Source: a virus. From it: a DNA stretch of 64,000 nt. Shown here in pieces: positions 2,665-55,906 of the stretch. Location: the IMG/VR virus record IMGVR_UViG_3300045988_111426. The stretch is one strand, 5' to 3'. Each line of letters starts with the position of its first letter. Position 1 is the first letter of the stretch. The notes under the pieces are model-generated. The model made no database searches and was not told the DNA's origin. It worked only from the letters and a program-made list of their open reading frames with translations. Made by a program: the position numbers and the translations under genes.

Positions 2665-4626
2665 TTAGAAGAGTGCTTTTGAAGGATCTATCAACGACTT
2701 TTGCTGTTCCTCAATGATCGTCTCCATTCCCAACAGTTCTCTAAACTCTGATTCGCTATAAATCCTAATCCCTGCACTCATCGCCTTTTGTTCCTTCGAT
2801 GATCCACTTCCCTTCTCCTTAATGACAAGATCAGTAACTACCTTCGTGTATGTTGCAGACACTTTCCCACCATTTTTAACAATAGTGTCTTCCATCGCCT
2901 TGTTTCTGAAACCAGTGAAACAGAAAACTCTCCCTTGATAAATGTCGGATTCTGTGGTTTCTACCTTTGTCTTGAAAGTGAGTACCGAGGACAAGGACTT
3001 ATAGAAATCGATAAACTTCTTATAGTTTTCCACAAAGATACCTGCTTGGATATCCCCGAATCCGTTGATTTTGAGAATGTCTGTGGATGAGGGGTAGAAA
3101 TCTTCTAAGTTTTCCCACGTGAGAGAATACTCATCGACGATCCATTGAAGTTTGACTGATCCAAGACTTTGGAACATGTTTGATGCGTGCATAAGACGAG
3201 AAATGGTGATGTCGGATATACACTTTTCAAGCGAACGGACAATGTTGGAAGAACGCTTGTCTCCAAACTCTGAGAACACACTCGCACGATCTCTGATGAC
3301 TCTTACTATTTCGTCAGTGTATAAAGAATTCTTGTCGAAGATCTTCTCATATGTCACATCTGACATTCCTTCAACACCGAGCACTTTGAAGAAGAATATG
3401 AACTCTTGTAGATTTCTACCAGAGCATCTCTCATTTGGACAATAGACATCAACGAGAGAATCATCAAGAACAATAGGAGATGAACAGTAGGGACATTCTC
3501 GGAAGAGATGACCTTCTGTGACCATTTCTCCATAAGACTTCCATCTTTCTTTCTTTGGAATAGAGTGAATTCTTGGAATCACCTTTCCAGATCTCTTGAT
3601 GATAATCTCTTCACCGCATCTTAGTCCATTGTCACGGACATAACTCGCATTGTCGACGTAGATGTTGTTGCCACACATAGCACCATCAATGAGGACTTTA
3701 TCGGTGGTGATAGTTGGGTTGAAAGTCCCATCTTTCCCGATGAACCAATTCAAGGATCTAATAATCACTTTCTTTGTATCACCAAACGATCCCTTATAAG
3801 CAATAGCGAACTTTGGATTTCCGATAGAGTTGCGACCAAGAGAATCTGCAACAGAGAGGTCATTGATATCAATCACAAGACCATCGATTTCAAACTCAAG
3901 GATAAACTCTTGATAAGTTGTTGATAGGAATTCTTCGGTTATGTCTTCAAAGTCGACAAGAATGTACCGAACAGGTATCTTGTTGAGAGTGTTCAACCTG
4001 TCGATCATCTCCTGCTTTGTCTTATAAGAACCAGCATAACTGGTGTACTTCATAAAGACAAAGTCTCGAAGCTCCTCCGAAGACCTTGATCGTGGATTGA
4101 GCTTTCCTGCGACCATGTTTCTCACATTCTTGTATTCTGATGAGTACTTCTCTGAGAATACGCTCTGTGGGATGATAAGCTCACCGACTATTTCTTCATC
4201 ATCTTTAAAAAGTGGTTCTATAAGTGAGAAATGGTGAGAAATAGAAAAGCTCATATTCTCACGACCTTTCACGAGTGCTGTCACACTTCCATCTTCTGAT
4301 ATTTTCACCCCACAAGACACACCATCATACTTTGGTGTGACGATGAACTTCTGAGACTGGAGGTTATTTTTAGAGACCCACTCACGGAATTCCTCGATTG
4401 TCTTGATTTTCTCGAGACCATACATCGGGATCGAGTTTTCTACACGAGCGTGAGAAACACGACCATCGAAAAGTCTCGTACACGTGACCAGAGAATAGTG
4501 ATTATACGCCTTATCATAGTCTTCATCAGAGGCAGTTGGAAATCCAGAGCGATATTCATCGTTTCTCTCACGTAACCATTCTCTCAAAAGATCGAGGTCT
4601 AAGGAACAGATGTCGTCAATATTCAT
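2665..4626 (-). CDS. ligA: NAD-dependent DNA ligase
   Basis: Adenylation motif KYDGVS, Zn finger CPYCSSPIV...CPNERC, and a C-terminal BRCT-like GRVFCFTGF. Size of 653 aa fits. Confidence 0.9.
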   Translation of the reverse strand: MNIDDICSLDLDLLREWLRERNDEYRSGFPTASDEDYDKAYNHYSLVTCTRLFDGRVSHARVENSIPMYGLEKIKTIEEFREWVSKNNLQSQKFIVTPKYDGVSCGVKISEDGSVTALVKGRENMSFSISHHFSLIEPLFKDDEEIVGELIIPQSVFSEKYSSEYKNVRNMVAGKLNPRSRSSEELRDFVFMKYTSYAGSYKTKQEMIDRLNTLNKIPVRYILVDFEDITEEFLSTTYQEFILEFEIDGLVIDINDLSVADSLGRNSIGNPKFAIAYKGSFGDTKKVIIRSLNWFIGKDGTFNPTITTDKVLIDGAMCGNNIYVDNASYVRDNGLRCGEEIIIKRSGKVIPRIHSIPKKERWKSYGEMVTEGHLFRECPYCSSPIVLDDSLVDVYCPNERCSGRNLQEFIFFFKVLGVEGMSDVTYEKIFDKNSLYTDEIVRVIRDRASVFSEFGDKRSSNIVRSLEKCISDITISRLMHASNMFQSLGSVKLQWIVDEYSLTWENLEDFYPSSTDILKINGFGDIQAGIFVENYKKFIDFYKSLSSVLTFKTKVETTESDIYQGRVFCFTGFRNKAMEDTIVKNGGKVSATYTKVVTDLVIKEKGSGSSKEQKAMSAGIRIYSESEFRELLGMETIIEEQQKSLIDPSKALF

Positions 4627-4690
4627 ATCTTAAGAGATCTTTTTTAGTGTTTTGTACGATTCTTATCATAAGAACATACTTTCCTTATCA

Positions 4691-4752
4691 CAGAGAGGTA
4701 CTTTCCTTGCGCTCTGATAGGTCTTGTGGGGTGAAAATAGCACAAATAAGCG
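4691..4752 (+). repeat. partial copy of dispersed hairpin element (left arm plus core)
   Basis: GAGGTACTTTCCTTGCGCTCTGA followed by core GTGAAAATAGC. The right arm is replaced by a different hairpin. Confidence 0.7.
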
Positions 4753-4785
4753 ATGACCTCAAGAGAGAGGTTCTCTTGAGGTCAT
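4753..4785. terminator. hairpin
   Basis: ATGACCTCAAGAGA / TCTCTTGAGGTCAT, a 14-bp stem. Confidence 0.55.
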
Positions 4786-4816
4786 TATAGATTAAAGATT
4801 GTGTTATTGGAATCTG

Positions 4817-5212
4817 TTAGTACTTGAACAATAATTTCACTGCTTCTACGTGAGATTTCTGTCTTTCCCAAGACTTCTTATTCTTCTTGATAGATTCGAT
4901 AACTTCCACAGATTGTTCCGTTTCGAGCATTGTATCGAGATCTGAAATGTGGTTATCACAGACCTTGATAAGCTCGTTTACCTTATCCTCATTTGAGAAT
5001 TGTGACATGACCTGCGAAAGATTCCACAGAAGTCGGTGAGATTTTTCGAGTTGTTCAAACTCATATGCGTCGACAGATAACTCATCATCCTCGCCATTGT
5101 TACTCATGTCTTGAATGTAAGAGTAGATCTTTTGCAAGGTGACATTTAGAATCTTTGCATCGAACGAGGCATATTCTACTGGTACTGGACTAATCATTGA
5201 TTTTTCTTCCAT
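4817..5212 (-). CDS. hypothetical protein
   Basis: Track ORF of 131 aa. It overlaps the end of the upstream gene by 23 nt, so it is probably in the same operon. Confidence 0.55.
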   Translation of the reverse strand: MEEKSMISPVPVEYASFDAKILNVTLQKIYSYIQDMSNNGEDDELSVDAYEFEQLEKSHRLLWNLSQVMSQFSNEDKVNELIKVCDNHISDLDTMLETEQSVEVIESIKKNKKSWERQKSHVEAVKLLFKY

Positions 5213-7337: not shown

Positions 7338-8173
7338 CGATTAAGACTAAAATCGTTATAGTTCTTCGTTGTCACTGCAGAGATGAATCCACCCTTACCG
7401 CCGACACGACAGCGAACGAACCCCTTCATATTTAGGGTGGAAATAGTCCCAGCGATAGCGTGATCACCGTCCACAACGTCGGATGCACGGATGACATCAC
7501 GCATTTGTTGTTCCATTGATCGTACTATTGCCTTGTAAACGATCCATTCATTCTCGGTGAGGAACTGGAGACAAGGTTCGTTGGATTGGGCGAGTTCTTC
7601 TACGAATTCATAGCTTGCAAGACCATACTTGATGCTGTTGGTCTTGAGCATCTTCTGACGACGACTACGAGACACCTTCTCGCCTGTGAGAGTTATCTTT
7701 TCTTGCTCTTCGTCTTGCTGTTGTTCTTGAGCATCTTCGTCGATGATATCTTCGTTGTTATCCACACTGGTGAAATTAAGCTCGTGTTTTTCGCCATCAA
7801 GAAGATAAAGGACATGTCCCTTCATGTTGGAAGCATCGTCGAAGTTGATCGATATCTCAACGACATCTGTGCATTCTATGCCTTCATCATCGATGGAGTT
7901 GAGGATCTTGCAGATGAATTCCATCTGTTCTACCGTCATTACGGATTGATGACCGTTGTAGATATCGTTCGTCTGACGTGGCTTGAACGAGATGAAGTCG
8001 TCTGACCAAGCTATGAACTGTTCGTATGCGTCTTTGTCGGTGCAGTTTGCGTTCTCATCTACGAGGAATTTGACCCCATTGTGGTAGATTGAGCGGGTTT
8101 GTCCACGCTTAGTGCATGAGTTATAGACGTTAAGCAAAGAGCTGTACTTGAGGTTGAGGATCTGAGTTGCCAT
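7334..8173 (-). CDS. hypothetical protein (acidic central region)
   Basis: Track ORF of 279 aa with an ATGA overlap to the downstream Hint ORF. It is preceded by the duplicated leader. Confidence 0.6.
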   Translation of the reverse strand: MATQILNLKYSSLLNVYNSCTKRGQTRSIYHNGVKFLVDENANCTDKDAYEQFIAWSDDFISFKPRQTNDIYNGHQSVMTVEQMEFICKILNSIDDEGIECTDVVEISINFDDASNMKGHVLYLLDGEKHELNFTSVDNNEDIIDEDAQEQQQDEEQEKITLTGEKVSRSRRQKMLKTNSIKYGLASYEFVEELAQSNEPCLQFLTENEWIVYKAIVRSMEQQMRDVIRASDVVDGDHAIAGTISTLNMKGFVRCRVGGKGGFISAVTTKNYNDFSLNR

Positions 8174-8300
8174 GATCGGAATTGTTGTTTAGTTGAATTG
8201 ATTGATTGATCCGAGTGATCTTTCATAACAGTTATAACAAAAATCGTGCCAAATCATCACTGTCATGACAAAGTTGTCATATTCTGTCATCTTTGTCATA
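8174..8300 (-). repeat. duplicated leader/regulatory region, copy 1 (paralog of 55761-55902)
   Basis: About 130 bp nearly identical to 55761-55902, starting at the ATG (CATGATCGGAATTGTTGTTTAGTTGA...GATCCGAGTGATCTTTCATAACAGTTATAACAAA). Confidence 0.8.
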
Positions 8301-12268: not shown

Positions 12269-13777
12269 ATGAATTCACGATACATACGAATAAGTACAGA
12301 ACTTCTACTTGAATTCGTTGCAAGTGCATCAGAGAAGCACGATACCGATGTTCGACTTCGTAGAATAACTTCGGAATATGACGGCACATGTACTCTGTAT
12401 AACGAGAAGGGAACTGGGAACAGTATCGACAAAGTGCATCTCATCACCGACAGGTATGACACAATGGCGGTTGGTGAAGAAGGTGGGAAACTGTCGGATT
12501 CCAACACGCTTTTCAGAGATGAAAAATGCGACCTTCGTTTCTATGACAAGATGAAATACAACAAGGTTCGTCTTCATCTTCTTTGTGGATACAACTTGCA
12601 GAACATAGAAGGCTTAGGTATAAACCTTTTCATTAGAGATACCGAGAAGGTCTTTAATCTTGCCGATATTGTCATTTTCTCTCCACGTATCGGAGATGTG
12701 ACATATACAAGATCACCAAAGAGAATCACGGAATCAGTCTTTGACAGATACATCGAGTTTGACATCATAAGCATTGACGATATTCTCGAATATTCTCGAA
12801 CAGATGAAGAAATGGTAAAGAGAGTGTTCGGACAAGATATGGTCATTGACGGCGTTCTTCATGTCGAGACTTATGAAATCCGAAATCTTCACGTAGAGAA
12901 CGGATTCAAGGTATTCCAAACATACAACAAGCATCGGTCATCATTTCCGATTGGGAACGAATATAAATCGTTAAGCGCAGAACTGAGATTTTCGGAAGAC
13001 AAGACTTGTGTTGAGTTCTCGGGAAGTTTTGAAGGTATGAGTTTCGAGGACTTCATGTACAGACTAAACTCGATGTCAAAGAACTCTTATTTTGTACAAC
13101 ACGAGATAAGAGTTGTTGAACAGGTTGGTAACTCTTTCATTGAGCAGGATACGTGGGTAACTGTACAGAACACTGACTTTGACAAGATCTTCAAGTTCAG
13201 ACCAGTGATAGAGAACAAGGGTGTGATCTCGGTCAGCATCGATTATAGGATGACCTTGGTGAATGCTTATAACGCAAACGGCATGAGTGTAGAAGCATCA
13301 ATAAGCACACGAGACATACAAAGTTTCCAAGGGAAGTTGGTAAAACTTCAAGCACCTTTGCAAAACATAAGAGTTGTGCAGAAAATTGCGAGATCTTCAG
13401 ATAAGAACATACGTGAGGTGTCAAACGATGTCATAAAGACGAAGTATATCACAAAGTACGTAAACGTTACCGATATCACAACCGACAAGAAGGACATCCA
13501 CGTCACGCCATTTAGATCGACCTACAGGATAAATCTGAAAGGTGTAGAATCACAGAACAACAATCATCGTGCTTTCCTCGTCTATGTTGATGACTATGGG
13601 CAGAAGCACTATATGAAGAACGTGGTGAGTGAAGAGCTGTCGGCTCGTGAGTACATGTTCATAATGGAAGAAAACACGTCTGTTACGATTCTTAAAAATG
13701 CGAATCGTAAGCTCTATTTCGTCATAATAGAGAATGATGTAGAAAATGTGATCGATGTCTTGAACATCACGACTTAA
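12269..13777 (+). CDS. hypothetical virion-type protein
   Basis: Track ORF of 502 aa with the late-type motif upstream. Confidence 0.65.
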   Translation: MNSRYIRISTELLLEFVASASEKHDTDVRLRRITSEYDGTCTLYNEKGTGNSIDKVHLITDRYDTMAVGEEGGKLSDSNTLFRDEKCDLRFYDKMKYNKVRLHLLCGYNLQNIEGLGINLFIRDTEKVFNLADIVIFSPRIGDVTYTRSPKRITESVFDRYIEFDIISIDDILEYSRTDEEMVKRVFGQDMVIDGVLHVETYEIRNLHVENGFKVFQTYNKHRSSFPIGNEYKSLSAELRFSEDKTCVEFSGSFEGMSFEDFMYRLNSMSKNSYFVQHEIRVVEQVGNSFIEQDTWVTVQNTDFDKIFKFRPVIENKGVISVSIDYRMTLVNAYNANGMSVEASISTRDIQSFQGKLVKLQAPLQNIRVVQKIARSSDKNIREVSNDVIKTKYITKYVNVTDITTDKKDIHVTPFRSTYRINLKGVESQNNNHRAFLVYVDDYGQKHYMKNVVSEELSAREYMFIMEENTSVTILKNANRKLYFVIIENDVENVIDVLNITT

Positions 13778-17881: not shown

Positions 17882-18445
17882 ATGACTTCGGCAAGAATAG
17901 ATGGGCGACAATTCACCACAAGCTCAAAACAGCGTGAACTTTTCGCATTGTGCTTGAAAGTTATCAAGGGTGGAATGAGACTTCAAGATGTTCCACAGAA
18001 GAAGTACTATGGTGTGAAAAACATCGTCGAGAGATACTATCAAGGAAAGATTTCTATGGAGCATATTCTCGAAAAGTCAACATCCGCAATAGTTCGAGGT
18101 GATAATGGTAATCAGACGATCATCACGAATGGTTACAAGATTGAGAAGAATCCAAACTATGAAGATGAAGGGGGGGAGACGATTTTCTACATGTACCTCC
18201 CAAAAAGAGCGATCGACGAAATCCCGAGGATCTTCAACTATGGTATCCGATCGATGAATTATGGATCGATGACAGAGACGAACGAGTTCTGTAGATTCCA
18301 AGACAACGTTGTGGTTGTGATATCGACAAACATAAAGGTGAGAAAGAAGATAGACGAATTCAAAAGGAAGGCGGTCTATTATGGTCTTGATGTTGTAAGA
18401 CCTCAAGATATCAGAGAAATACAATACAAACTGGAAAATGTCTAA
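17882..18445 (+). CDS. hypothetical protein
   Basis: Track ORF of 187 aa. Confidence 0.55.
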   Translation: MTSARIDGRQFTTSSKQRELFALCLKVIKGGMRLQDVPQKKYYGVKNIVERYYQGKISMEHILEKSTSAIVRGDNGNQTIITNGYKIEKNPNYEDEGGETIFYMYLPKRAIDEIPRIFNYGIRSMNYGSMTETNEFCRFQDNVVVVISTNIKVRKKIDEFKRKAVYYGLDVVRPQDIREIQYKLENV

Positions 18446-19244
18446 TAGAAGTGAAATAATCCACAGAGACCTTTTTGGTGAACTCAAGGAGATGATGTCA
18501 TGTAGTCATCTTGGAGAAATCGTCTCTCTTGAGGGAACAGATAAAGACCCAGGCAGGGTAAAAATTAGGGTCTTTGGGGTGTTTGATTCCAAAGACCTCG
18601 GAAGCATACCAGATGAAGATCTTCCATACGCTTATCCAATAGAAACCCTTTCATTTGGTAGCAAAAGTGGTGCAGGTGCGTATTCTGCACCAAAGGTGGG
18701 AAGCATTGTAAGAGTGGTGTTCAAGGACGACATTTATCATCCTCGATACTTCTCTATTGAATGGTTAGATGAAGAACTTCGGCAGGAAATAAAAAATGAT
18801 CCCGAGAACTTCCATTCACTTCTGTTCGATACTGATGAGAAGATGAAGATCTTCTACAGTAAAAAGAAAGGTATGATGATTGATTACAATGAATCAAACG
18901 TAAACATCAAGCCAGATGGGTCGATAGTGATCACGCATCGTGGAGGATCTGCAGTTATAGAACTCAGAGGTGACGATATCGACATTGTCTCCAAGAATCA
19001 GATCAACATCTCTTCAGAGAATAGCGTCACCGTGAACTCACAGAAGATACACGACAATGGTTCTGAGTACATGGCAGGTGCAAATCCTTCTTACAAAATG
19101 GTAAATGGTGAACCACTGATGATACTCCTTAAAGGTCTTGCACAGATAATAGGAACTAAACTTCCAATTGATCCAAGCGCATCAACACTCGTGCAATCTA
19201 TGGAACAATCAGTGCTTAGTGCAACTTGTAAAGTTTCTCCTTAA
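18438..19244 (+). CDS. baseplate central spike, gp5/VgrG-like (OB domain plus beta-helix)
   Basis: GRVKIRVFGV...DLPYAYP...PKVGSIVRVVFKDDIYHPRYF, followed by repetitive beta-helix-like VNIKPDGSIVITHRGGSAVIELRGDDIDIV. Confidence 0.65.
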   Translation: MSNRSEIIHRDLFGELKEMMSCSHLGEIVSLEGTDKDPGRVKIRVFGVFDSKDLGSIPDEDLPYAYPIETLSFGSKSGAGAYSAPKVGSIVRVVFKDDIYHPRYFSIEWLDEELRQEIKNDPENFHSLLFDTDEKMKIFYSKKKGMMIDYNESNVNIKPDGSIVITHRGGSAVIELRGDDIDIVSKNQINISSENSVTVNSQKIHDNGSEYMAGANPSYKMVNGEPLMILLKGLAQIIGTKLPIDPSASTLVQSMEQSVLSATCKVSP

Positions 19245-19266: not shown

Positions 19267-19318
19267 AAAACCGATTGGGGTCATCTGATGCTATTTTCAG
19301 ATGACCCCAATCGGTTTT
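19267..19318. terminator. bidirectional hairpin
   Basis: AAAACCGATTGGGGTCATCTGA / TCAGATGACCCCAATCGGTTTT, a 22-bp stem. Confidence 0.7.
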
Positions 19319-19333
19319 CAAGTATGTCTTCTG

Positions 19334-19430
19334 ATAAAGACGAGGTACTTTCCTTGAACTTGGAGGTACTCGAAGCTATGAAAACAACACCAAACTTTTC
19401 AGAGTGCAAGGAAAGTGCCTTCCTTGAAGT
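19334..19430 (+). repeat. dispersed hairpin element, diverged full copy
   Basis: GGTACTTTCCTTG at 19344 and CAAGGAAAGTGCC at 19407. It abuts the stop codon of the TerL fragment. Confidence 0.75.
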
Positions 19431-19433
19431 CGG

Positions 19434-19895
19434 TTAACCATAGATCATCGTGTAAAGCTTTGATCTTAATCTGTTGATGAATGTTTGAGGGAAGAGGTCA
19501 GAAATCTTGAAGTTTCCGTGTTGCCCATTTATGACAGATCCCCAACCTTTACTTTTCCCAATCTGACGTGAAGCAAGGATAACGTTGTGCCTGTAATACT
19601 GAAGCTGTTGGATGATTCTTGTCTGATATGGTCTCAGTTTGATATGCTTGATACCATCATCAGTTTTTACCTTGGCCAGATTTTCTGAGAAGTACAAGAC
19701 AGAATCTTGAACCTTTGCAAGTTCAAGAAGTTCATCCTCTGTGTATGAGAAGTTGATACGTGGTTTCCTCAAGCGAACATCACCACTATAAAACGGATTC
19801 TTCTTGGGAAGTACACCCTTGTCGTTGAATTCCTGTATGAGCTTCTCTACACGTTCTGTAGACCACAGCATGTTCTCTACAACCTTCTTCGCCAT
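19434..19895 (-). CDS. terL: terminase large subunit, N-terminal fragment ending in an intein block-A-like tail
   Basis: Collinear with T4 gp17 up to Walker A (VLYFSENL...KLRPYQTRII...ILASRQIGK). It then switches to SKGWGSVINGQHGNFKISDLF...TFINRLRSKLY and stops. No Walker B or nuclease part is present. Confidence 0.7.
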   Translation of the reverse strand: MAKKVVENMLWSTERVEKLIQEFNDKGVLPKKNPFYSGDVRLRKPRINFSYTEDELLELAKVQDSVLYFSENLAKVKTDDGIKHIKLRPYQTRIIQQLQYYRHNVILASRQIGKSKGWGSVINGQHGNFKISDLFPQTFINRLRSKLYTMIYG

Positions 19896-19986
19896 ATGTT
19901 GGTTTTTCTTTATATTTTCAAAAAGACGAGTGTCGGAGATGCCTTCTTTGACACCTCCGACACCTTTTATCTTCTCTTCGTTTTTG

Positions 19987-20610
19987 TTATTTCTCCCAAA
20001 GTGGGGAATAATCGTGCTTATCGAGTTCTTTCTTTACACGTTCCCAATATTTCCCAGCTTCTGGATCTGTTCCACTGATGTCGTGACGTGACCAGATTCT
20101 ACAAGCCATTTCATAGGACATCTTCTTGTTATACTTCTTCTGAGTTATGAGGAACATCTGCACCGCCTTCTTGGGGTCAAGTCGATCCTCATATTTGAAA
20201 GCAGAATCTGTCGACAGGTTACAATCATCAACGTTGATTCTTGACTGTTGAAGAAGACCTTTATACTTTCCGCTCTTGGAGACCATGTTTGGAATCCCAC
20301 GAGATTCAACATGTGCTATTGCGGAAAGTAGTGGCTTGAATTTTTCATAGACTTCGATGTATTCATAAGAATAAACGTAGTCGGGGAACTTTGAAGAATC
20401 GACCTTCAAGGGAGCTTCGATCTCTTGTTCGATCGTGATTACAGATTCTAATGAATCCTGTGGTAGAGAATCTACAACAGTCGATTCAAGAGCGGTAGTG
20501 TCAGTGATAGATTTACCAGAACTACCATTACAGCTTTTTACACAGATCACTGTAATCACAAACAAAAGTACTACAGCACCTACGAGATAGATTGTTTTTT
20601 TCTGTTTCAT
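19987..20610 (-). CDS. lytic transglycosylase (SLT domain) with signal/lipobox
   Basis: N-terminal LVGAVVLLFVITVICVKSC. SLT core AIAHVESRG...GKYKGLLQ. Confidence 0.65.
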   Translation of the reverse strand: MKQKKTIYLVGAVVLLFVITVICVKSCNGSSGKSITDTTALESTVVDSLPQDSLESVITIEQEIEAPLKVDSSKFPDYVYSYEYIEVYEKFKPLLSAIAHVESRGIPNMVSKSGKYKGLLQQSRINVDDCNLSTDSAFKYEDRLDPKKAVQMFLITQKKYNKKMSYEMACRIWSRHDISGTDPEAGKYWERVKKELDKHDYSPLWEK

Positions 20611-20622
20611 TAGTCGTATTAA

Positions 20623-22239
20623 TTAAAAGATAGTTTCTGATTCTTTGATTTCCATAGCACCCTCCTTTGTTATGTCAACATTGTAGGATTCTACTATCAA
20701 ATCTTCAGATCTGTAGTATTCAAGTCTCGACTTTGACCAATTCTGCATGAAACACTTCTTGGTTTCCTTTTGTCCAGTCATCGGATTTGACCTTACCACA
20801 GTAGTATCTTCTGTTATATCGTAAAAGTATGACATTTCCTTACCATCCGAAAGTCTCAAAAGTCGACCAGATGATTGGTTGAGAAGAATATCACTCTTAA
20901 TTGCTTCACCAGTGACGACATTCACGAGGTTTTTAATCGATTGCCCAGTAGAGAAAACTGAGTAATTCGCCACGAGAATCGATTGACCTTCCGTGTCGTT
21001 TCTCATGTAGTCTTTTATCACTTCTCTTTCATTGGAGGAAATGTCGCCATCAATATAGAACACTTTCTTGGAAAGTCCTCTTTGGAAAGATATCTCTTGA
21101 AGTCTTTCGTAGATCTTTCGACCATAGCCACCCTTTTTGTCATTGAAGTAGACAAGGGTGTTACCTTTCAAGGAGCATATGAACTGACACTTCCATTCAA
21201 GAAGACGCTTATGATTTCGGATGAACTGTTGTTCATATCTCAGTGACTTCTCACCATCTTCGATATAGTCCTTTTCGGATGATAAAGCAATGAGTTCTGA
21301 TCTACTACAGAACTTGACGTTTATCATTCTGATCGTTATGTTAGTCGCTGCACCTCTATTGATCAGATCAGTTTTCTTGATAACTCTCACAACTGGTCCG
21401 AAGTTCTCTTCAACGGTGAACTCATCGGCATCACCTTTTCCCTTGTAGAATGAACCCGAACATCCAAGAAGGTTCTCAACCGCACCACACTTTGCAATGA
21501 TTTGTTTGATTGTGGTGGCAACGGATCTGTGTGCTTCGTCACAGATTACAGTGTCAAACTTCTCAAAGAACTCATCGGGGAGGTTTATTAATGATGCAAA
21601 GTTTCCAATTGCGTGTGGGAAGTCGTTCGCAGAGAGTTTGTCCTTAGAACCTCCGTGGATCATTGCCACTTTTAGGTTGTATTTTCCACAAGCATAATCT
21701 CGCCATTCATCATAAGACTGAATGACAAGACCTGGGTCGGGTTCAATGATAAGGATGTTCTTCGAGATTTTCAAGTATCTCAGAAGCATCATGTACATGT
21801 ACATGATCAACGTTTTACCACCACTCGTTGCGACCTCTACACAACTGAAACGAGACCTGATTGCTTTATAGACAGTGTCAATCTGATAGTCGTATGGTCT
21901 GATCTTTGGATGACAAGAGAGAAGCTTCTTACAGAACTTTTCTACAAATTCATAGGTGATCTCCTCACGGATGAAACCATCAAAGTTCTCAAACTCAAGA
22001 GGAAACTGGTATTTCTCACACATTTCTATGAGCTTCGACCACATCGTTGATCTTATCCGCTTCCCTTTGTAGATGTACGCCACGATACCATTCCAACCTT
22101 TGAACTTCTTCTTCATGAAATGGTAGTTTTTTACTTTCCTATGGAAGTAGTCGTTTGTCTGTAGCATTTCGCCTTCATTTTCATAATGAAGGTCGATGAA
22201 CATCTTGTCTTCAGAAAGTATTGCTTTCATTGTCTTCAA
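20623..22239 (-). CDS. SF2 DEAH-box DNA helicase (UvsW-like role)
   Basis: Walker A ATSGGKT and DEAH box VICDEAHR. Size 538 aa. Confidence 0.75.
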   Translation of the reverse strand: MKTMKAILSEDKMFIDLHYENEGEMLQTNDYFHRKVKNYHFMKKKFKGWNGIVAYIYKGKRIRSTMWSKLIEMCEKYQFPLEFENFDGFIREEITYEFVEKFCKKLLSCHPKIRPYDYQIDTVYKAIRSRFSCVEVATSGGKTLIMYMYMMLLRYLKISKNILIIEPDPGLVIQSYDEWRDYACGKYNLKVAMIHGGSKDKLSANDFPHAIGNFASLINLPDEFFEKFDTVICDEAHRSVATTIKQIIAKCGAVENLLGCSGSFYKGKGDADEFTVEENFGPVVRVIKKTDLINRGAATNITIRMINVKFCSRSELIALSSEKDYIEDGEKSLRYEQQFIRNHKRLLEWKCQFICSLKGNTLVYFNDKKGGYGRKIYERLQEISFQRGLSKKVFYIDGDISSNEREVIKDYMRNDTEGQSILVANYSVFSTGQSIKNLVNVVTGEAIKSDILLNQSSGRLLRLSDGKEMSYFYDITEDTTVVRSNPMTGQKETKKCFMQNWSKSRLEYYRSEDLIVESYNVDITKEGAMEIKESETIF

Positions 22240-31945: not shown

Positions 31946-32028
31946 CTGTATTCAAACATTGACCTTCCAGTCATATTCAGAAAAATTGACTGGAAAAATG
32001 ACTGGAAATGTGTTATTAAACTATCACA

Positions 32029-32131
32029 TTAAAGGAAGGTACTTTCCTTGCACTCGAAATAGCCCGAGAATATGAAAATAGCGGAAAATGGATCAGAGTT
32101 CAAGGAAAGTACCAAGGAAAGCCAAGGAGAG
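32029..32131 (+). repeat. dispersed hairpin element, copy A
   Basis: GGTACTTTCCTTG at 32038, core GAATATGAAAATAGCGGAAA, and CAAGGAAAGTACC at 32101 followed by AAGGAAAGCCAAGGAGAG. Confidence 0.85.
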
Positions 32132-32180
32132 GTATTCCGTGAGACTATGGGTCATCGTCCGAAGGCAATAGACCATTTCG

Positions 32181-32275
32181 AAGGATTATGGAAGACTATG
32201 GAAGACTATGAAAGACAATGACGATTGTTGAAAGACAACGGAGGATTATCAAAGGATTATGAAGAGACAATAGTT
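32181..32275 (+). repeat. 10-bp-phased degenerate repeat array
   Basis: aaggattatg|gaagactatg|gaagactatg|aaagacaatg|acgattgttg|aaagacaacg|gaggattatc. The units stay in register with the 10-nt blocks of the listing. Confidence 0.75.
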
Positions 32276-32286
32276 CTGATTTGTTA

Positions 32287-32392
32287 ATTAAGACGAGGTA
32301 CTTTCCTTGCGCTCTGAGATATTCAAGAATATGAAAATAGCGGAGACTATACTCGAGTTCAAGGAAAGTACCTTCCTGTAATCAGGAGACAT
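32287..32392 (+). repeat. dispersed hairpin element, copy B
   Basis: GGTACTTTCCTTG at 32297 and CAAGGAAAGTACC at 32360, then TTCCTGTAATCAGGAGAC. Confidence 0.85.
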
Positions 32393-32399
32393 ATTCTCG

Positions 32400-32580
32400 A
32401 GGATTATGGGTTTCTGTCGGAAGACAATCAAAGACAATGACTGATTATGGAAAGACAATGATGATCATCAAAGGACTATTGAAAGACAATGACTAATCAT
32501 CGAATACTATGAACGATAATCGGAAGACAATGAAGGATTATCAAAGGATTATTGAAAGAAAATGGCTAAAAATGGTCGAA
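32400..32580 (+). repeat. 10-bp-phased degenerate repeat array
   Basis: aagacaatca|aagacaatga|ctgattatgg|aaagacaatg|atgatcatca|aaggactatt|gaaagacaat|gactaatcat|... Confidence 0.75.
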
Positions 32581-32685
32581 TTAAAGAGAGGTACTTTCCT
32601 TGTCCTCGAAGACATTCAGTGGGGTAGAAATAGCGTCAAATAGATCAGAGCGCAAGGAAAGTACCTTCCTGTAATCAGAAGAGGT
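32581..32685 (+). repeat. dispersed hairpin element, copy C
   Basis: TTAAAGAGAGGTACTTTCCTTG at 32581 and CAAGGAAAGTACC at 32653, then TTCCTGTAATCAGAAGAG. Confidence 0.85.
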
Positions 32686-32699
32686 ATTCTGTTGAATGG

Positions 32700-33290
32700 T
32701 GGGTTTCTGTCGGAAGACAATGACTATTGTCAATGACTATGGAAAGACAATCGACTATGGAAAGACAATAGAGGATCGTGAAAAGATCATCAAAGACTTT
32801 GAAAGACAATCAAAGACAATAGCTGATTCTTTGAAGACTTTGGAATCTATTGATTAATCATTGAAAAGATCATCACTTCTTTGAAAATTTCTCTAAAGAT
32901 TGATTGATAGACTGATGACTTTTGTCTGAATCATAGATTTCCGCCCCTTTAATGATAATCGTTTTGAAGACAAAAGATGATCGTTAAATGGTTTTATTGT
33001 GGACGAGGATTGTTGAAAATCAAAATCAGTCTTTTTTGAATCCCAGAATAGACCAGAACAATTGAAAGAGACCATTGATGATTCCCGAGATATTTATGAT
33101 TCTTGGAAAGACTATGATTCTTGGAAAGACAATGGAGGATTATTCAAAGAGAGATTGAAATTGAAAGATAATCATTCCAAGAACGGAGATTTGTTAAGAA
33201 TTGTTAACTGATTTTGAATGGAAAGTTGAAAATTGGAGGATTCATCAGACAGATAATCATACAGATAATCAGATTATCCTCGGAATTTGC
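32700..33290 (+). repeat. extended degenerate repeat field (GAAAGACAAT / GACTATGG / GATTATC family)
   Basis: The same short units recur throughout, and no protein-like ORF is present. Confidence 0.6.
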
Positions 33291-33372
33291 CGACAAACCG
33301 TGCGTATACACGAAACTTTAAAAAAACGCGCGAATTCCCGTGTATACCCGTATACGCATGCGGTATTTTTTT

Positions 33373-33497
33373 CCAGTTTTATCGTAAATACAAAGTATTT
33401 ACAACTGGTTTGGGGTCAGCCTTGGCACGATAGTGCCAAGCCAGGCTGCCCCAAACCATACATTGAGCGCAGAAACATGTCGTGCGCATGTTTTTAA
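33373..33497 (+). ncRNA. candidate small structured RNA or DNA structure at the centre of the palindromic region
   Basis: Three consecutive hairpins: CCAGTT..GTAAATAC/GTATTTAC..AACTGG (33373-33408), GGTTTGGGGTCAGCC..TGGCAC/GTGCCA..GGCTGCCCCAAACC (33407-33457), and AAACATG/CATGTTT plus a T-run (33473-33495). Confidence 0.3.
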
Positions 33498-33714
33498 ATT
33501 TCCAGTTTAAACCAAAAGTACCAGGTGCGTGTTAGGGAACTTTAAAAAAACGCATGCGTGAAACTCCAAAAAAAGCGCACGCACGCAAAAAACTTTAAAA
33601 AAGACCTGTGTCAAATCCCCCGAACAGATTAACACCTTTTAACACCTTAAAACCGATATTCTCTTTCCAAGATATTCCTCCCATAAGCCACAGAGACCAT
33701 AACCCTCGAAAATA

Positions 33715-33820
33715 TGTCTCCTTGGCTTTCCTTGGTACTTTCCTTGAACTCGAGTATAGTCTCCGCTATTTTCATATTCTCAGATATCTCAGAGCGCAAG
33801 GAAAGTACCTTCCTTTAATT
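33715..33820 (-). repeat. dispersed hairpin element, copy B' (reverse complement of copy B)
   Basis: GGTACTTTCCTTG at 33734, core in reverse (TCCGCTATTTTCATATTC), and CAAGGAAAGTACC at 33797. Confidence 0.85.
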
Positions 33821-33824
33821 CAAT

Positions 33825-33960
33825 TATTTTCGATCATTGTCTCGATAGTCATTGATGATCTTCCATTGTCCTTCATTATTGTCATAGTCTTTTGATAATC
33901 CTTGGAAATAACCATTGTTTTCGGAAGATGATTCATAAACCTCAAAAATGTTCAGAATCG
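33825..33960 (-). repeat. mirrored degenerate repeat array
   Basis: CATTGTC / CATAGTC / GATAATCC units, which are reverse complements of the left-arm units. Confidence 0.65.
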
Positions 33961-34004
33961 ATATTCCCATGTGAACCGAGGAGACCATAATAATCAGAAA
34001 ATAC

Positions 34005-34107
34005 TCTCCTTGGCTTTCCTTGGTACTTTCCTTGCGCTCTGATCTATTTTCCGCTATTTTCATATTCTTGAACCTCTCAGAGCGCAAGGAAAGTACCTCT
34101 CTTTAAA
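34005..34107 (-). repeat. dispersed hairpin element, copy A' (reverse complement of copy A)
   Basis: CTCCTTGGCTTTCCTTGGTACTTTCCTTGCGCTCTGA ... TCAGAGCGCAAGGAAAGTACCTCTCTTTAAAG, with a 21-bp perfect stem. Confidence 0.85.
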
Positions 34108-34173
34108 GCGTATCAATTGATAATACACTTTAACACATTTCTTCAATCTTCAATCATCCCTCAAACAACAATC

Positions 34174-34235
34174 CGCCAATCTCCGATGAATTGGTTCTTT
34201 TTGATAAAAAAGAACCAATTCATCGGAGATTGGCG
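34174..34235. terminator. 29-bp perfect hairpin followed by a T-run
   Basis: CGCCAATCTCCGATGAATTGGTTCTTTTT gata AAAAAGAACCAATTCATCGGAGATTGGCG TTTTT. Confidence 0.55.
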
Positions 34236-34381: not shown

Positions 34382-34454
34382 GATTTCATAGCTCAACAGG
34401 TAGAGCACTGCACTTTTAATGCAGGGGTTGTGGGTTCGATCCCCACTGGAATCA
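34382..34454 (+). tRNA. tRNA-Lys (anticodon TTT)
   Basis: Hand-folded cloverleaf: acceptor GATTTCA/TGGAATC, D-arm GCTCAACAGGTAGAGC, anticodon stem CTGCA/TGCAG with loop CTTTTAA, T-arm GTGGGTTCGATCCCCAC. Confidence 0.85.
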
Positions 34455-48498: not shown

Positions 48499-48762
48499 TT
48501 ATAAGAGAGAAATCGTCTTGTCTTCTTCACCTATCACGGAAGCATGACCAAGAGAGACCATATCGTCCACAAGAGACCAAAGTTGGTCACGTTTCTCTTC
48601 ACCGAACACTTTCACGATGTCGTTGAACTTCATCGATTTCCTACCTTTCGAGAGGATTGCATAAACGACATCATCAATAGAGTGGTTTGTATAGTGAAGA
48701 TATTCACCAGAGATGTGCTTTATCTTCAGATCCTGCTTATCTACGAGTTCATCGATCTTCAT
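48499..48762 (-). CDS. hypothetical protein
   Basis: Track ORF of 87 aa with an ATGA overlap to the recombinase gene. Confidence 0.5.
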   Translation of the reverse strand: MKIDELVDKQDLKIKHISGEYLHYTNHSIDDVVYAILSKGRKSMKFNDIVKVFGEEKRDQLWSLVDDMVSLGHASVIGEEDKTISLL

Positions 48763-50528
48763 AATCCGCTCATAATCTTGTCCATTTCGGAAAGTTCTTC
48801 AATATCGGTGTTTGAAAGATCACCGTCCATGTCCTCATATTCTTTATCTCTGTAAGAGAACAGAGGAATCATGACCTTCTCATCAAGCGTCTTCAAGATT
48901 TCGTCAGTGAAGACATGTTTGTTGAAGATTTCCAGATTCTTGAAGGACTTATTGAGATGACGGACTACCCATTCAGTCCCAGTGGGTGTGGGGAAACAGA
49001 CCTTCTCCGTAGATGATGGCGTGAGTTTTCCATCTTCGAATCTTTCCGTGAAGAACTTCTCGGTGAATACGAATTTCTGATCCTTCTTTTCGTTGATTTC
49101 CTGCGTCTGTTCAGATTCGACTTCGATGAGTCTTTCCACATAAGACCCATCATTTATCGACTGGATGATCGACTTCTTGAACTTGAGTTTCTGATTCTTT
49201 GCAACGTCGAGTTTCACATTCCCGACCATATAAGCATCACCGCTGTCGATATAGCTCGAGATCATCTTCGTCATTGCTTCATCAGAATAGATGCCGTGCA
49301 CGATCAGTTTGTCCTTGATCGTCTTTGTTTCGAGATCTTCTGTGAAGTCAAACACATCTTGCTCCATCATACGTATGAGGTCTGGCAGTACGATCGTGTT
49401 ATCTGACGATACAATTCGAATATGACCATTGTAGAGGTCGTATGACAGAGATTGATAGAACGTTTGCTTCTTTGCCTGTGCAAGTTCTCGTTCTATTTCC
49501 TTCGTCGAGTAAGTCTTCGTTTTGTCAAGACCGATCTTCTTTGATATCTCTGAAGCCACGTCTACATACGCCACCATTCTTCCTCGGTCGATCCCACAGA
49601 TGTTCCAAGATACGAATTCCTGTAAGCCCATGTAAGCGTTAAGCCCCTTTGTGAAGGAGATGTAAAACTCTACTGGTCTGTGAATTGAGAATCGAGATTC
49701 ATTGATCCCTGCAGTTACAATGACCCCCATCTTCTGCTTGTTCTCATCCCGATCGAACTTCTTACGAAGAGATACAAGAACGGATGCCATGTAAGTGATC
49801 CCTTTACCACCGCTTGTTACACGAACTCGCTGATATCCTTGCTCGGCTTCGTATTCATGTGCAGTACAGAGCATTGGGATGTCGAGCTTCCCAAGACGAG
49901 GTGTGATCATGTTGAACAGAAGCTTGATTTCCTTGGCTACTGTCCCCATGTCCTGCTTCATTTCACCACTTAGAGCATCGGAGAATTGCTTCGATGAGTT
50001 CAGTGCAGAAAGTGAATCGATGAAAACTGCAACCTTTGGGATTTCAAGCTTTTCATCTTCGGAAAGCTTCTTGTTCTTCTGCTCGTATTCCTTCTTCGTA
50101 TCAAGTAGTGATTGTGTGAGCTGTGTGAGCTGTACAGTGATGTCTGCCACAGTCTCTGGTACAATCACACGTACGCCTTGAGGATCAACGCCTTGTGCTA
50201 TAAATCTGTCATAGCTCGTGGCGTTCTCGGTGTCGAAATAGATGCAGAAATAACCCTTCTTTTGTAACTGTGCCATGCATGACAGAAGAACGAAGGATTT
50301 CCCAGTTTTTGGATCACCAGATATCGTGATGATTCTCCCAGAAGGTACACCTTTGAGGATTGATCCCGATATGCAGGCGTTGAGGACATAAGAACCTGTG
50401 TGAACCCATTCTCGGATTTCTGCTGTTGTGTGTTCAGAGAGCAGACCACCAGATTTATCAAAGTTTCCAATGAATTGGTTGATCTCTGAAAAACTCTTTG
50501 CGTTTCCGTTAAAGATAGTTTTTGCCAT
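48759..50528 (-). CDS. RecA/UvsX-like recombinase with long C-terminal extension
   Basis: Walker A GDPKTGKSF and Walker B VFIDSLSAL. The RecA-type core fills the first ~330 aa and is followed by ~250 extra aa. Confidence 0.75.
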   Translation of the reverse strand: MAKTIFNGNAKSFSEINQFIGNFDKSGGLLSEHTTAEIREWVHTGSYVLNACISGSILKGVPSGRIITISGDPKTGKSFVLLSCMAQLQKKGYFCIYFDTENATSYDRFIAQGVDPQGVRVIVPETVADITVQLTQLTQSLLDTKKEYEQKNKKLSEDEKLEIPKVAVFIDSLSALNSSKQFSDALSGEMKQDMGTVAKEIKLLFNMITPRLGKLDIPMLCTAHEYEAEQGYQRVRVTSGGKGITYMASVLVSLRKKFDRDENKQKMGVIVTAGINESRFSIHRPVEFYISFTKGLNAYMGLQEFVSWNICGIDRGRMVAYVDVASEISKKIGLDKTKTYSTKEIERELAQAKKQTFYQSLSYDLYNGHIRIVSSDNTIVLPDLIRMMEQDVFDFTEDLETKTIKDKLIVHGIYSDEAMTKMISSYIDSGDAYMVGNVKLDVAKNQKLKFKKSIIQSINDGSYVERLIEVESEQTQEINEKKDQKFVFTEKFFTERFEDGKLTPSSTEKVCFPTPTGTEWVVRHLNKSFKNLEIFNKHVFTDEILKTLDEKVMIPLFSYRDKEYEDMDGDLSNTDIEELSEMDKIMSGL

Positions 50529-55076: not shown

Positions 55077-55760
55077 TTATTTCGTCATTCTACCATAGCA
55101 CCACTTATCAGCACCATTTATGAAGTCGATAGATTCTCGCATAGCTTCCGACATTGTCGTGCTGATGATCTTCTTTTCATAAGTCCCACTCATGGTGCGT
55201 GCAGTGAACGTTAGAATATCGATTTTGTCGTTGTTGTCTCGGTCTTTATCCCAATATTCCAACGTGACAGTCATCATCACATCATAATTGATATTAAAGA
55301 TGAAGTTGTCGAAAGATGTCCCCTTGACATCATCATCTCCGTATTTGTGCTCCCATGTCGTGTTAAGTGTTGCACAAACGACATCACTTACAAGATCATA
55401 CTCATCTACCGACCCATTATCAAGATCTTGATCTTCATCTTTGTTTTCTGGTTTCTTGTATATCATGAGATCAGATAGCGTCGATACGATCTTTTCGATG
55501 TAGTCATCTTCGCTTTCAAGTGTTTCCACGATCATCGAAGATTCATTCACCGAGAAAAGATCGTTGATGACCATCCCGAACATGTTTGGGAAGCAGTTTG
55601 CGTGGAAGATGATCGTATGACCGTCTTCGCAAGTGATCGTGTATGTTACGTGGTATAATGATTCGTTCTGTACCGCTTTCGATTTGTCGAATCGTGCGTT
55701 GGAAGATGAACAAACAAACTCTACGTTCTTGTCCAGCTTGTCTTGTACTGTTGTTGTCAT
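55077..55760 (-). CDS. hypothetical protein
   Basis: Track ORF of 227 aa, preceded by the duplicated leader. Confidence 0.55.
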   Translation of the reverse strand: MTTTVQDKLDKNVEFVCSSSNARFDKSKAVQNESLYHVTYTITCEDGHTIIFHANCFPNMFGMVINDLFSVNESSMIVETLESEDDYIEKIVSTLSDLMIYKKPENKDEDQDLDNGSVDEYDLVSDVVCATLNTTWEHKYGDDDVKGTSFDNFIFNINYDVMMTVTLEYWDKDRDNNDKIDILTFTARTMSGTYEKKIISTTMSEAMRESIDFINGADKWCYGRMTK

Positions 55761-55906
55761 GATCGGAATTGTTGTTTAGTTGAGTTGAAGTTGATTGACT
55801 GATCCGAGTGATCTTTCATAACAGTTATAACAAAGATCGTGCCAAATCATAACTGTCATGACAAAATTGTCATACTCTATCATTCTTGTCATGACAAAAT
55901 TGTCAT
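55761..55906 (-). repeat. duplicated leader/regulatory region, copy 2, with two 16-bp palindromes
   Basis: Near-identical to 8174-8300. ATGACAAAATTGTCAT occurs at 55858-55873 and 55891-55906, 33 bp apart. Confidence 0.8.

Follow-up and report, generated by a model that had tools for sequence, protein, structure and literature searches.

The DNA analysed here, called the window, is a stretch of 64,000 nucleotides from IMG/VR record IMGVR_UViG_3300045988_111426. Reverse-complemented, it corresponds to nucleotides 1-64,000 of the 71,366-nt contig ERZ989771 k127_47954, which comes from a human oral metagenome. On its minus strand lies a gene that encodes the front part of a T4-type terminase large subunit (TerL) and stops 39 codons after the Walker A lysine. 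We believe that this gene encodes the N-terminal half of a natural, atypically split class 1 intein at the GK|S site of the TerL P-loop, and we give this reading a probability of roughly 0.85. Below, N-extein and IntN are the TerL and putative intein portions of the N-terminal fragment, and IntC is the intein portion of the partner protein. The gene is laid out as follows.

19434-19895, minus strand: open reading frame (ORF) of the N-terminal fragment, 153 aa, 462 nt, read directly and translated
19554-19895, minus strand: N-extein, TerL residues 1-114, from the N-terminal subdomain to Walker A (end ...ILASRQIGK), placed by PHROG 5989 and the MaF61 alignment
19437-19553, minus strand: putative IntN, 39 codons (SKGWGSVINGQHGNFKISDLFPQTFINRLRSKLYTMIYG), with Ser1 as nucleophile, a block A-like region at residues 1-21 and a helical tail at residues 22-39
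19434-19436, minus strand: TAA stop codon of the gene, from direct reading

The replicon is a phage of about 150 kb found in human oral metagenomes. It is T4-like, with a gp23-type capsid protein, a gp13-type neck protein, a gp5-type baseplate hub, SbcCD, a DnaB-like helicase and a UvsX/RecA-like protein. When 10 kb of the window were compared with GenBank phages by megablast, there were no matches.

An earlier reading of the window made without database searches (the sequence-only reading) had claimed that the ORF is the beginning of TerL as far as the P-loop, and our searches agree. Residues 36-115 of the fragment match PHROG 5989 (terminase large subunit) with E 1e-15, and the best tblastn match among GenBank phages is TerL of Flavobacterium phage MaF61 (39.5% identity, E 2e-19). 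This search returned 1365 TerL-bearing records in all, MaF61 included. In nearly all of the listed records the match ended at residues 115-117 of the fragment, at the Walker A Lys of SRQIGK or just past it; among the exceptions listed, three ended at residues 123-126 and one match of low identity reached the end of the fragment. No GenBank phage record covered 80% or more of the query. With full-length MaF61 TerL as the tblastn query, the fragment was collinear with MaF61 residues 6-113 (39% identity). It was also the sole match in the 64-kb window, where no C-terminal part of TerL was found; the sequence-only reading had likewise seen no partner there. Pfam returned nothing for the 153-aa ORF, even at E 10.

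Beyond ...RQIGK, the codons and the stop are those that the sequence-only reading had given, and on re-reading the spacing it had listed for the tail (S1, S6, I8, G13, I17, L20) proved exact. The first residue is Ser, and all homologues have Ser or Cys at that position. The resulting block A pattern (S1..S6.I8....G13...I17..L20) can be lined up with that of gp41-1 (CLDLKTQVQTPQGMKEISNI versus SKGWGSVINGQHGNFKISDL). This line-up was made by eye only, and none of our hidden Markov model (HMM), BLAST or hhalign alignments reached the 21-residue block A-like stretch. Within the species group the block A positions of the tail are invariant. The tail is also collinear with the N-terminal part of two contiguous inteins, in proteins P0021 and P0073, that occupy the same GK|S/T site; BLASTP against P0021 ended at GK[S/C] and is uninformative on the tail. 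We assign the putative IntN by its position, motif, conservation and collinearity with these cis inteins. In TerL, P-loop inteins classically insert between the invariant Walker A Lys and the Ser/Thr that follows (PMC5050341), and the GK|S break of the present gene coincides with this site, as the sequence-only reading had recognized.

Conservation of the N-terminal fragment

An identical 153-aa protein is encoded on at least 15 other contigs. Homologues at 94, 72, 69 and 50% identity are similar in length (153-161 aa), have the same end point and display a common tail pattern, S-x-x-x-x-S/x-V-I-N...I..L(F/Y)...R.R..LY..I. In 12 of 12 sibling sequences the gene measures 462 nt; across them the N-extein is almost invariant and variation in the tail is confined to loop positions. 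The ratio of non-synonymous to synonymous substitution rates (dN/dS), calculated for sibling genomes by the Nei-Gojobori method, was 0.010 for the N-extein, 0.125 for the 39-codon tail, 0.049 for IntC and 0.016 for the ATPase core. The value for the tail indicates purifying selection. Thus, the constant gene length, the near-invariant N-extein and the dN/dS of the tail show that the tail is translated and under selection.

These data bear on the alternative explanation that the sequence-only reading had itself raised, in which the ORF is what is left of a terL gene that a rearrangement at a hairpin element had broken, and the tail is a functionless sequence out of context. The partner is indeed absent from the window, and a copy of the element does lie beside the stop codon, ending 3 nt past it:

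19334-19430: hairpin element copy, with arms at 19343-19360 and 19403-19420, in the 3' untranslated region of the N-terminal fragment gene and outside the intein

However, a fixed length of 462 nt in all 12 siblings, a tail dN/dS of 0.125 with invariant block A positions, and a stop position and tail pattern shared with homologues at 72, 69 and 50% identity argue against a broken gene, as do the matching IntC partner in sibling genomes and the failure to find an intact terL elsewhere in the genome (see below). Because our search of the genome gave no second TerL, we reject a rearrangement or a pseudogene, and we consider this explanation extremely unlikely. The hairpin element was also dropped as the cause of a break because it is a general intergenic repeat and is missing downstream of the distant homologue at 50% identity, at the position that corresponds to the copy in the window.

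The partner gene and a separate nuclease gene

The other half of TerL was found by genome walking in the siblings of this phage. The siblings are five differently permuted IMG/VR contigs of 144.8-151.6 kb, probably complete genomes, whose N-terminal fragments are 95-99% identical to that of the window. Both TerL halves are present in all five (145-152 kb). They lie on the same strand, about 57-58 kb apart in one direction and about 90 kb in the other, which places the partner about 15-17 kb past the right end of the window. The positions of the N-terminal fragment, the IntC-ATPase gene (ORF2) and a nuclease gene (ORF3) are given for three siblings or sibling loci.

Contig 3300009964_000001 (150,601 nt), plus strand: N-terminal fragment 12,761-13,219; ORF2 103,157-104,239; ORF3 104,290-105,108
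Contig 3300045988_122716, minus strand: N-terminal fragment 112,014-112,472; ORF2 20,433-21,515; ORF3 19,560-20,378
Sibling locus L077, plus strand: ATPase-core ORF 2699-3781; nuclease ORF 3836-4654 (the pair is also present in L076, L078, L079, L083 and L084)

ORF2 encodes 360 aa from a conserved start, MRYILDKL; the 19 codons 5' of that start vary between genomes. The first part of the protein is a 143-aa IntC (...GSVNHLVY...QIVFDLSVVDETLSYFSDGILSHN), which ends in ILSHN and is followed by Ser+1 (SVMSGIF...). The second part is a 217-aa TerL ATPase core (SVMSGIFIAWYILTNYDK...LLYADEFA...TSTARG). It contains the Walker B motif LLYADEFA and the coupling motif TSTARG, and PF03237 matches the partner with E 7e-8. 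MaF61 TerL aligns to the partner from residue 113, the same residue at which its alignment to the N-terminal fragment ends. The joined exteins, ASRQIGK|SVMSGIFIAWYIL, are collinear with MaF61 ASRQIGKSIVTSIFLAWLIL. The partner continues TerL exactly from the Walker A Ser, and excision at GK|S rebuilds Walker A.

The sequence-only reading had pictured a partner that would carry intein blocks B, F and G, end them in HN before a Ser, and run on into Walker B; the 360-aa ORF of every sibling has this form. That reading had also held that a separate intact terL would speak against a split gene. We looked for one across the whole of a sibling genome, using overlapping loci and in part orthologous sequence from the window or other siblings, and found no other TerL-like sequence. 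The partner was not seen in 38 stretches fetched through the hairpin-element pattern. No endonuclease domain was found among the neighbours of either half.

Proteins consisting of IntC and the ATPase alone (346-380 aa) occur at 98% to 48% identity on contigs of 147-191 kb. In the siblings, ORF3 follows ORF2 after a conserved, AT-rich spacer of 50-54 nt. It encodes a 272-aa TerL nuclease domain (SIDIAEGKGGDY...) that aligns to residues 374-613 of MaF61 TerL and matches a PHROG terminase family. We dropped the idea of read-through or frameshifting from the ATPase ORF into the nuclease ORF, because the two occupy all three relative frames across genomes. The features of a T4-type TerL, namely Walker A, Walker B, the coupling motif and the RNase H-like nuclease, are spread over three ORFs. 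In these sequences, the TerL of this phage clade is encoded in three pieces, with an intein at the first junction only. Relatives at 45-47% identity have IntC, ATPase and nuclease fused in one protein, and in one 173-kb relative (L179) no nuclease ORF was found within 10 kb of ORF2.

The N-terminal fragment could instead have a role of its own, for example in binding the small terminase or in regulating packaging, while the IntC-ATPase protein works without it. The N-terminal region of T4-type TerL is outside the core ATPase fold, and the fragment is encoded by its own transcription unit, which lies between two terminator-like hairpins:

19267-19318: perfect 22-bp hairpin with flanking A/T runs, terminator-like, between the baseplate-hub gene (18438-19244, plus strand) and the convergent N-terminal fragment gene
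19929-19964, minus strand: terminator-like hairpin between the upstream SLT-like gene (19987-20610, minus strand) and the N-terminal fragment gene

Such a role is very unlikely. Neither piece has a complete P-loop, since the invariant Walker A Gly-Lys is on the N-terminal fragment and the Walker A Ser is the first TerL residue of the partner, and an independent function would leave the intein motifs on both pieces unexplained.

The family B DNA polymerase of this phage is also split, without an intein. Its N-terminal half (L077:5374-6870, plus strand; 498 aa) ends after motif A (DYESLFPS) and adjoins the TerL pieces. Its C-terminal half (L092:16351-17610, plus strand; about 400 aa) has motifs B and C (KVALNSIYG and YADTDS) and is found in the same genome at a distance of about 23 kb.

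Intein identity and a model for TerL assembly

The assignment as an intein is based on a family alignment of 21 sequences. Invariant or nearly so in this alignment are the block B His (xNH), the block F Asp, the C-terminal Ser-His-Asn and the Ser/Thr at +1. Block B of the partner is SVNH; its His is invariant in all 21 members, and S, A, C and T all occur at the Thr position. Blocks F and G of the partner read VFDLSVVDETLSYFSDGILSHN|S, in which D163, S180, H181 and N182 are invariant or nearly so. A profile of the IntC family matched the following inteins of solved structure in the PDB.

6vgv, VidaL: E 1e-14
6qaz, gp41-1: E 2e-13
6dsl_B, CatC, the AceL/GOS-TerL consensus: E 2e-9
8ubs, NrdJ-1: E 2e-6

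The family profile also matches the DnaX, DnaE, PolB16 and DnaB inteins, a profile that includes IntN gave similar PDB matches, and hhalign of the family against gp41-1 gave a probability of 97%. Searches with single sequences (the fused intein, or the intein with its insertion deleted, against Pfam and PDB) were marginal, with E 0.006-0.11, and profiles were therefore needed for the assignment. The AlphaFold model of the cis homologue P0021 has a mean predicted local distance difference test score (pLDDT) of 79.5, with 70-96 across the intein. It matches T4 gp17 (E 3e-25), the Cat intein (E 4e-7; template-modelling (TM) score 0.73) and the VidaL intein (E 1e-7; TM score 0.65; 101 columns superposed with a root mean square deviation of 1.2 Å). 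The sequence-only reading had named a match to intein profiles as one means of checking the tail. The check succeeded for the IntC partner and its family (PDB E 1e-14 to 2e-9; hhalign 97%), whereas for the 39-aa tail alone it gave nothing significant. Its suggestion of an atypically split intein is strengthened by the discovery of the IntC partner, by the failure to find an intact terL and by the matches of the IntC profile to solved inteins.

Several observations weigh against our interpretation. By itself the 39-aa IntN gives no significant match in the databases and is too short to do so, and local alignments with the family profile or hhalign never extend into block A. PF14890 matches the F/G region with E 0.006-0.02, which is under the Pfam curated cut-off, and these matches are restricted to the C-terminal blocks of constructs that contain IntC. 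This intein has Ser at the block B Thr position. Our reading of the partner comes from sibling genomes and not from the window's own contig, which ends at the right edge of the window. A model of the N-terminal fragment alone is of low confidence (pLDDT 54) and therefore gives at most a weak indication that the block A region may be unstructured on its own. Finally, splicing, and with it the class 1 mechanism in trans, is inferred from sequence.

The split falls at an unusual place. IntN (39 aa) holds the block A-like region only and IntC (143 aa) holds blocks B, F and G. Thus, the break lies between blocks A and B, which is the ‘atypical’ site of AceL-TerL and GOS-TerL (PMC11766414). Compared with gp41-1 and CatC, the intein family has about 50 additional residues inserted behind block A, namely IntN residues 22-39 and IntC residues 1 to about 30. 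CatC aligns from IntC residue 30 or so onward, which leaves about 27 extra residues at the N-terminus of IntC. In the P0021 model a single long helix (162-193) comes after a β-hairpin (132-145) and a short helix (146-157), and the position equivalent to the split (176|177) falls midway along the long helix. The helical extensions on both fragments may help the halves to find each other.

The intein has Ser1 and Ser+1, and there is no cysteine in either half. It also has an extra His at position 92 of the fused intein (IntC residue 53, SSVHLK), 23 residues before the block B His. This His is invariant in 21 of 21 family members, Ser1 and Cys1 alike, whereas gp41-1 and VidaL have Phe there. His92 may be a family-specific catalytic or structural residue. 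It may also be a counterpart of the ‘motif NX’ His known from Ser1 inteins (PMC10189870), but it is not preceded by Arg/Lys and it is kept in Cys1 relatives.

Based on these results, we propose a model for how TerL is assembled. The short IntN, probably disordered alone, would dock on the larger IntC and complete the HINT fold. Ser1 would carry out an N-O acyl shift at the Lys114-Ser1 junction, the ester would pass to Ser+1, the terminal Asn would cyclise, and an O-N shift would seal GK-S. This would yield a TerL ATPase of 331 aa, with Walker A intact, that works with a separately made nuclease subunit. An unspliced intein at the P-loop site is expected to block TerL assembly (PMC5050341).

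A different possibility is that the intein is degenerate and catalytically dead, and that its halves serve only as a non-covalent docking module, so that the TerL fragments are never ligated. Evidence for ligation comes from sequence, and this leaves room for association alone. When the cis homologue is modelled, IntN residues 22-39 and IntC residues 1-30 make up a single long helix; they could by themselves stabilize such an association, and the ATPase and nuclease of this TerL already seem to act as separate polypeptides. However, the class 1 residues (Ser/Cys1, block B His, block F Asp, penultimate His, terminal Asn and Ser/Thr+1) are all present and are invariant or close to it in a family that extends to about 25% identity. 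In addition, without ligation Walker A would stay cut between Lys and Ser with about 180 intein residues in place, and pentamer mapping suggests that this is incompatible with TerL assembly (PMC5050341). We consider docking alone unlikely and prefer trans-splicing by the split intein.

On balance, and with only modest conviction, we favour a more specific picture in which the motor of this clade consists of three TerL pieces. Two of them would be ligated by a natively Cys-free Ser1/Ser+1 atypically split intein, whose genes are about 57 kb apart and lack a homing endonuclease, and the nuclease would never be covalently attached. If this is true, a T4-type terminase works with its ATPase and nuclease as separate polypeptides, and their conserved separation bears on models of packaging that need a covalent hinge between the TerL domains. 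The intein would also be a ready-made, redox-insensitive tool for use at 37 °C with an IntN of 39 aa (perhaps about 21 aa). For protein engineering it is relevant that natural split inteins that are Cys-free, mesophilic and short in IntN are rare. For annotation, the terL gene of an abundant human oral phage group appears incomplete or absent until all three pieces are recognized; one of the pieces is already in GenBank as ‘large terminase protein’ (DAS62198.1).

Related inteins and other features of the genome

Homologues of this intein are found in other arrangements. In P0021 (797 aa) and P0073 (809 aa) it is a contiguous cis-intein (...RQVGK|CSLSS...ILSHN|TICSS...). In LR756500, an uncultured 462-kb phage, a TerL homologue ends in ARQTGK followed by a 76-aa tail that begins with Cys. 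The next ORF, of 366 aa, has weak matches to DUF559/Vsr-like endonucleases. It is followed by a 628-aa ORF whose first 147 or so residues end in ...LYTNGILSSQ and which runs on into TICSSIYIAWYVLF..., that is, TerL from the Walker A Thr. The end of this IntC has Ser-Ser-Gln in place of His-Asn, and the end of its IntN, FLDKIKYYLYKTY, resembles that of the tail in the window, FINRLRSKLYTMI. A protein search with the LR756500 C-terminal part gave P0021, P0073 and dozens of clusters of about 625-aa IntC-TerL-C proteins, some with PF14890; the matches were dominated by close relatives of LR756500, and the partner of the window fragment was not revealed. Farther downstream in this locus (LR756500.1 189000-198000; L028) are a 270-aa ORF resembling the N-terminus of TerL (4333-5145, minus strand) and a 615-aa endonuclease-like ORF.

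The halves of DnaE in the cyanobacterial Ssp and Npu systems, an essential enzyme, are also encoded far apart in the genome and joined by protein trans-splicing, as we propose for TerL. Those inteins differ in having a canonical split, with an IntN of about 100-120 aa and an IntC of about 36 aa, Cys1/Cys+1 and a cellular host. Fractured genes, a fractured gp17-like terminase among them, were reported by Dassa et al. 2009 (PMC2677866); the fractured terminase locus that they describe from Lake Gatun may be where GOS-TerL comes from. The LR756500 homologue is of this kind, with its GK|T site and a Vsr-like ORF between the halves. In the window phage, by contrast, the halves are about 57 kb apart and neither is beside an endonuclease gene, and its arrangement is not a fractured one in that sense. 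The TerL P-loop intein lineage appears in three states: contiguous (P0021 and P0073), fractured with an endonuclease gene (LR756500), and dispersed without an endonuclease (the window phage). This series should be useful for studying how split inteins become fixed.

Among characterized inteins, ours belongs with the atypically split TerL inteins, AceL-TerL (25/104 aa) and GOS-TerL (37/115 aa, Ser1; Bachmann & Mootz 2015) (PMC11766414); the sequence-only reading had stated correctly that split inteins with a very short N-terminal piece have been described in TerL. GOS-TerL is similar in being naturally split at the atypical position in a T4-type TerL with Ser1, and in having an IntN of 37 aa (39 aa here) and an IntC of 115 aa (143 aa here). 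The Cat consensus derived from GOS-TerL and AceL-TerL is matched by our IntC profile with E 2e-9. GOS-TerL differs in having Cys+1 (PMC11766414), where our intein has Ser+1 and no Cys; here, moreover, some 57 kb separate the halves, neither of which adjoins an endonuclease gene, and IntC has about 27 more N-terminal residues than CatC. AceL-TerL and the engineered Cat-TerL (PDB 6dsl) are homologous in sequence and structure and atypically split, with a block A-only IntN of 25-30 aa and a 104-aa IntC. They differ in having Cys1/Cys+1 and no long helical extension at the split, and AceL-TerL is cold-adapted and comes from an Antarctic lake, whereas the present phage is from a 37 °C habitat. Thus, Ser1/Ser+1 without Cys, dispersed genes without an endonuclease, the helical insertion and the 37 °C habitat set our intein apart from the characterized members of the class.

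VidaL and PolB16 OarG (PDB 6vgv and 8cpo; PMC10189870) also combine a very short IntN with a long IntC, PolB16 shares Ser1/Ser+1, and VidaL is the best PDB match of our family profile (E 1e-14). Both differ in having an IntN of about 15-16 aa. The host protein of PolB16 is a PolB, and its motif NX His follows Arg/Lys (PMC10189870), unlike His92. The mycobacteriophage TerL1-a P-loop inteins (Kelley et al. 2016, PMC5050341) are likewise inserted between the Walker A Lys and Ser/Thr, but they are contiguous, splice in cis and reside in a terminase_1-type TerL.

The hairpin element beside the N-terminal fragment gene is about 100 nt long and has the form GGTACTTTCCTTG-N~45-CAAGGAAAGTACC, with a partly conserved loop. 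At least 10 copies are present in the window, at 4687, 13771, 19333, 32027, 32286, 32579, 33693, 33981, 41183 and 46922. They are always intergenic and often lie between convergent genes. A pattern scan of IMG/VR gave 38 stretches with the element, all within this phage group, and a search of Rfam gave no family at the gathering score. The element may be a terminator, a regulatory element or a small mobile repeat.

In the UvsX/RecA-like protein (48759-50528, minus strand; 589 aa) only residues 30 to 200 or so match RecA-type ATPase profiles, and its long C-terminal extension gave no match in Pfam. The idea of a second intein in this protein is unsupported, as we saw no intein motifs there. Elsewhere, the window has an ORF-poor region at 32000-34200 with dense GAAAGACAAT-type direct repeats and several hairpin element copies, followed by tRNA genes at 34382, 35091, 39731 and 40176. 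A second, similar repeat cluster is present elsewhere in the genome (L051, about 11.6-13.4 kb). The region at 32000-34200 may be an origin or a regulatory region. An intergenic sequence of about 135 nt is duplicated at 8166-8299 and 55753-55892, 47.6 kb apart, with 92-94% identity; it contains the short repeat ATCAT..CTGTCATGACAAA.TTGTCATA and may be a shared promoter or operator.

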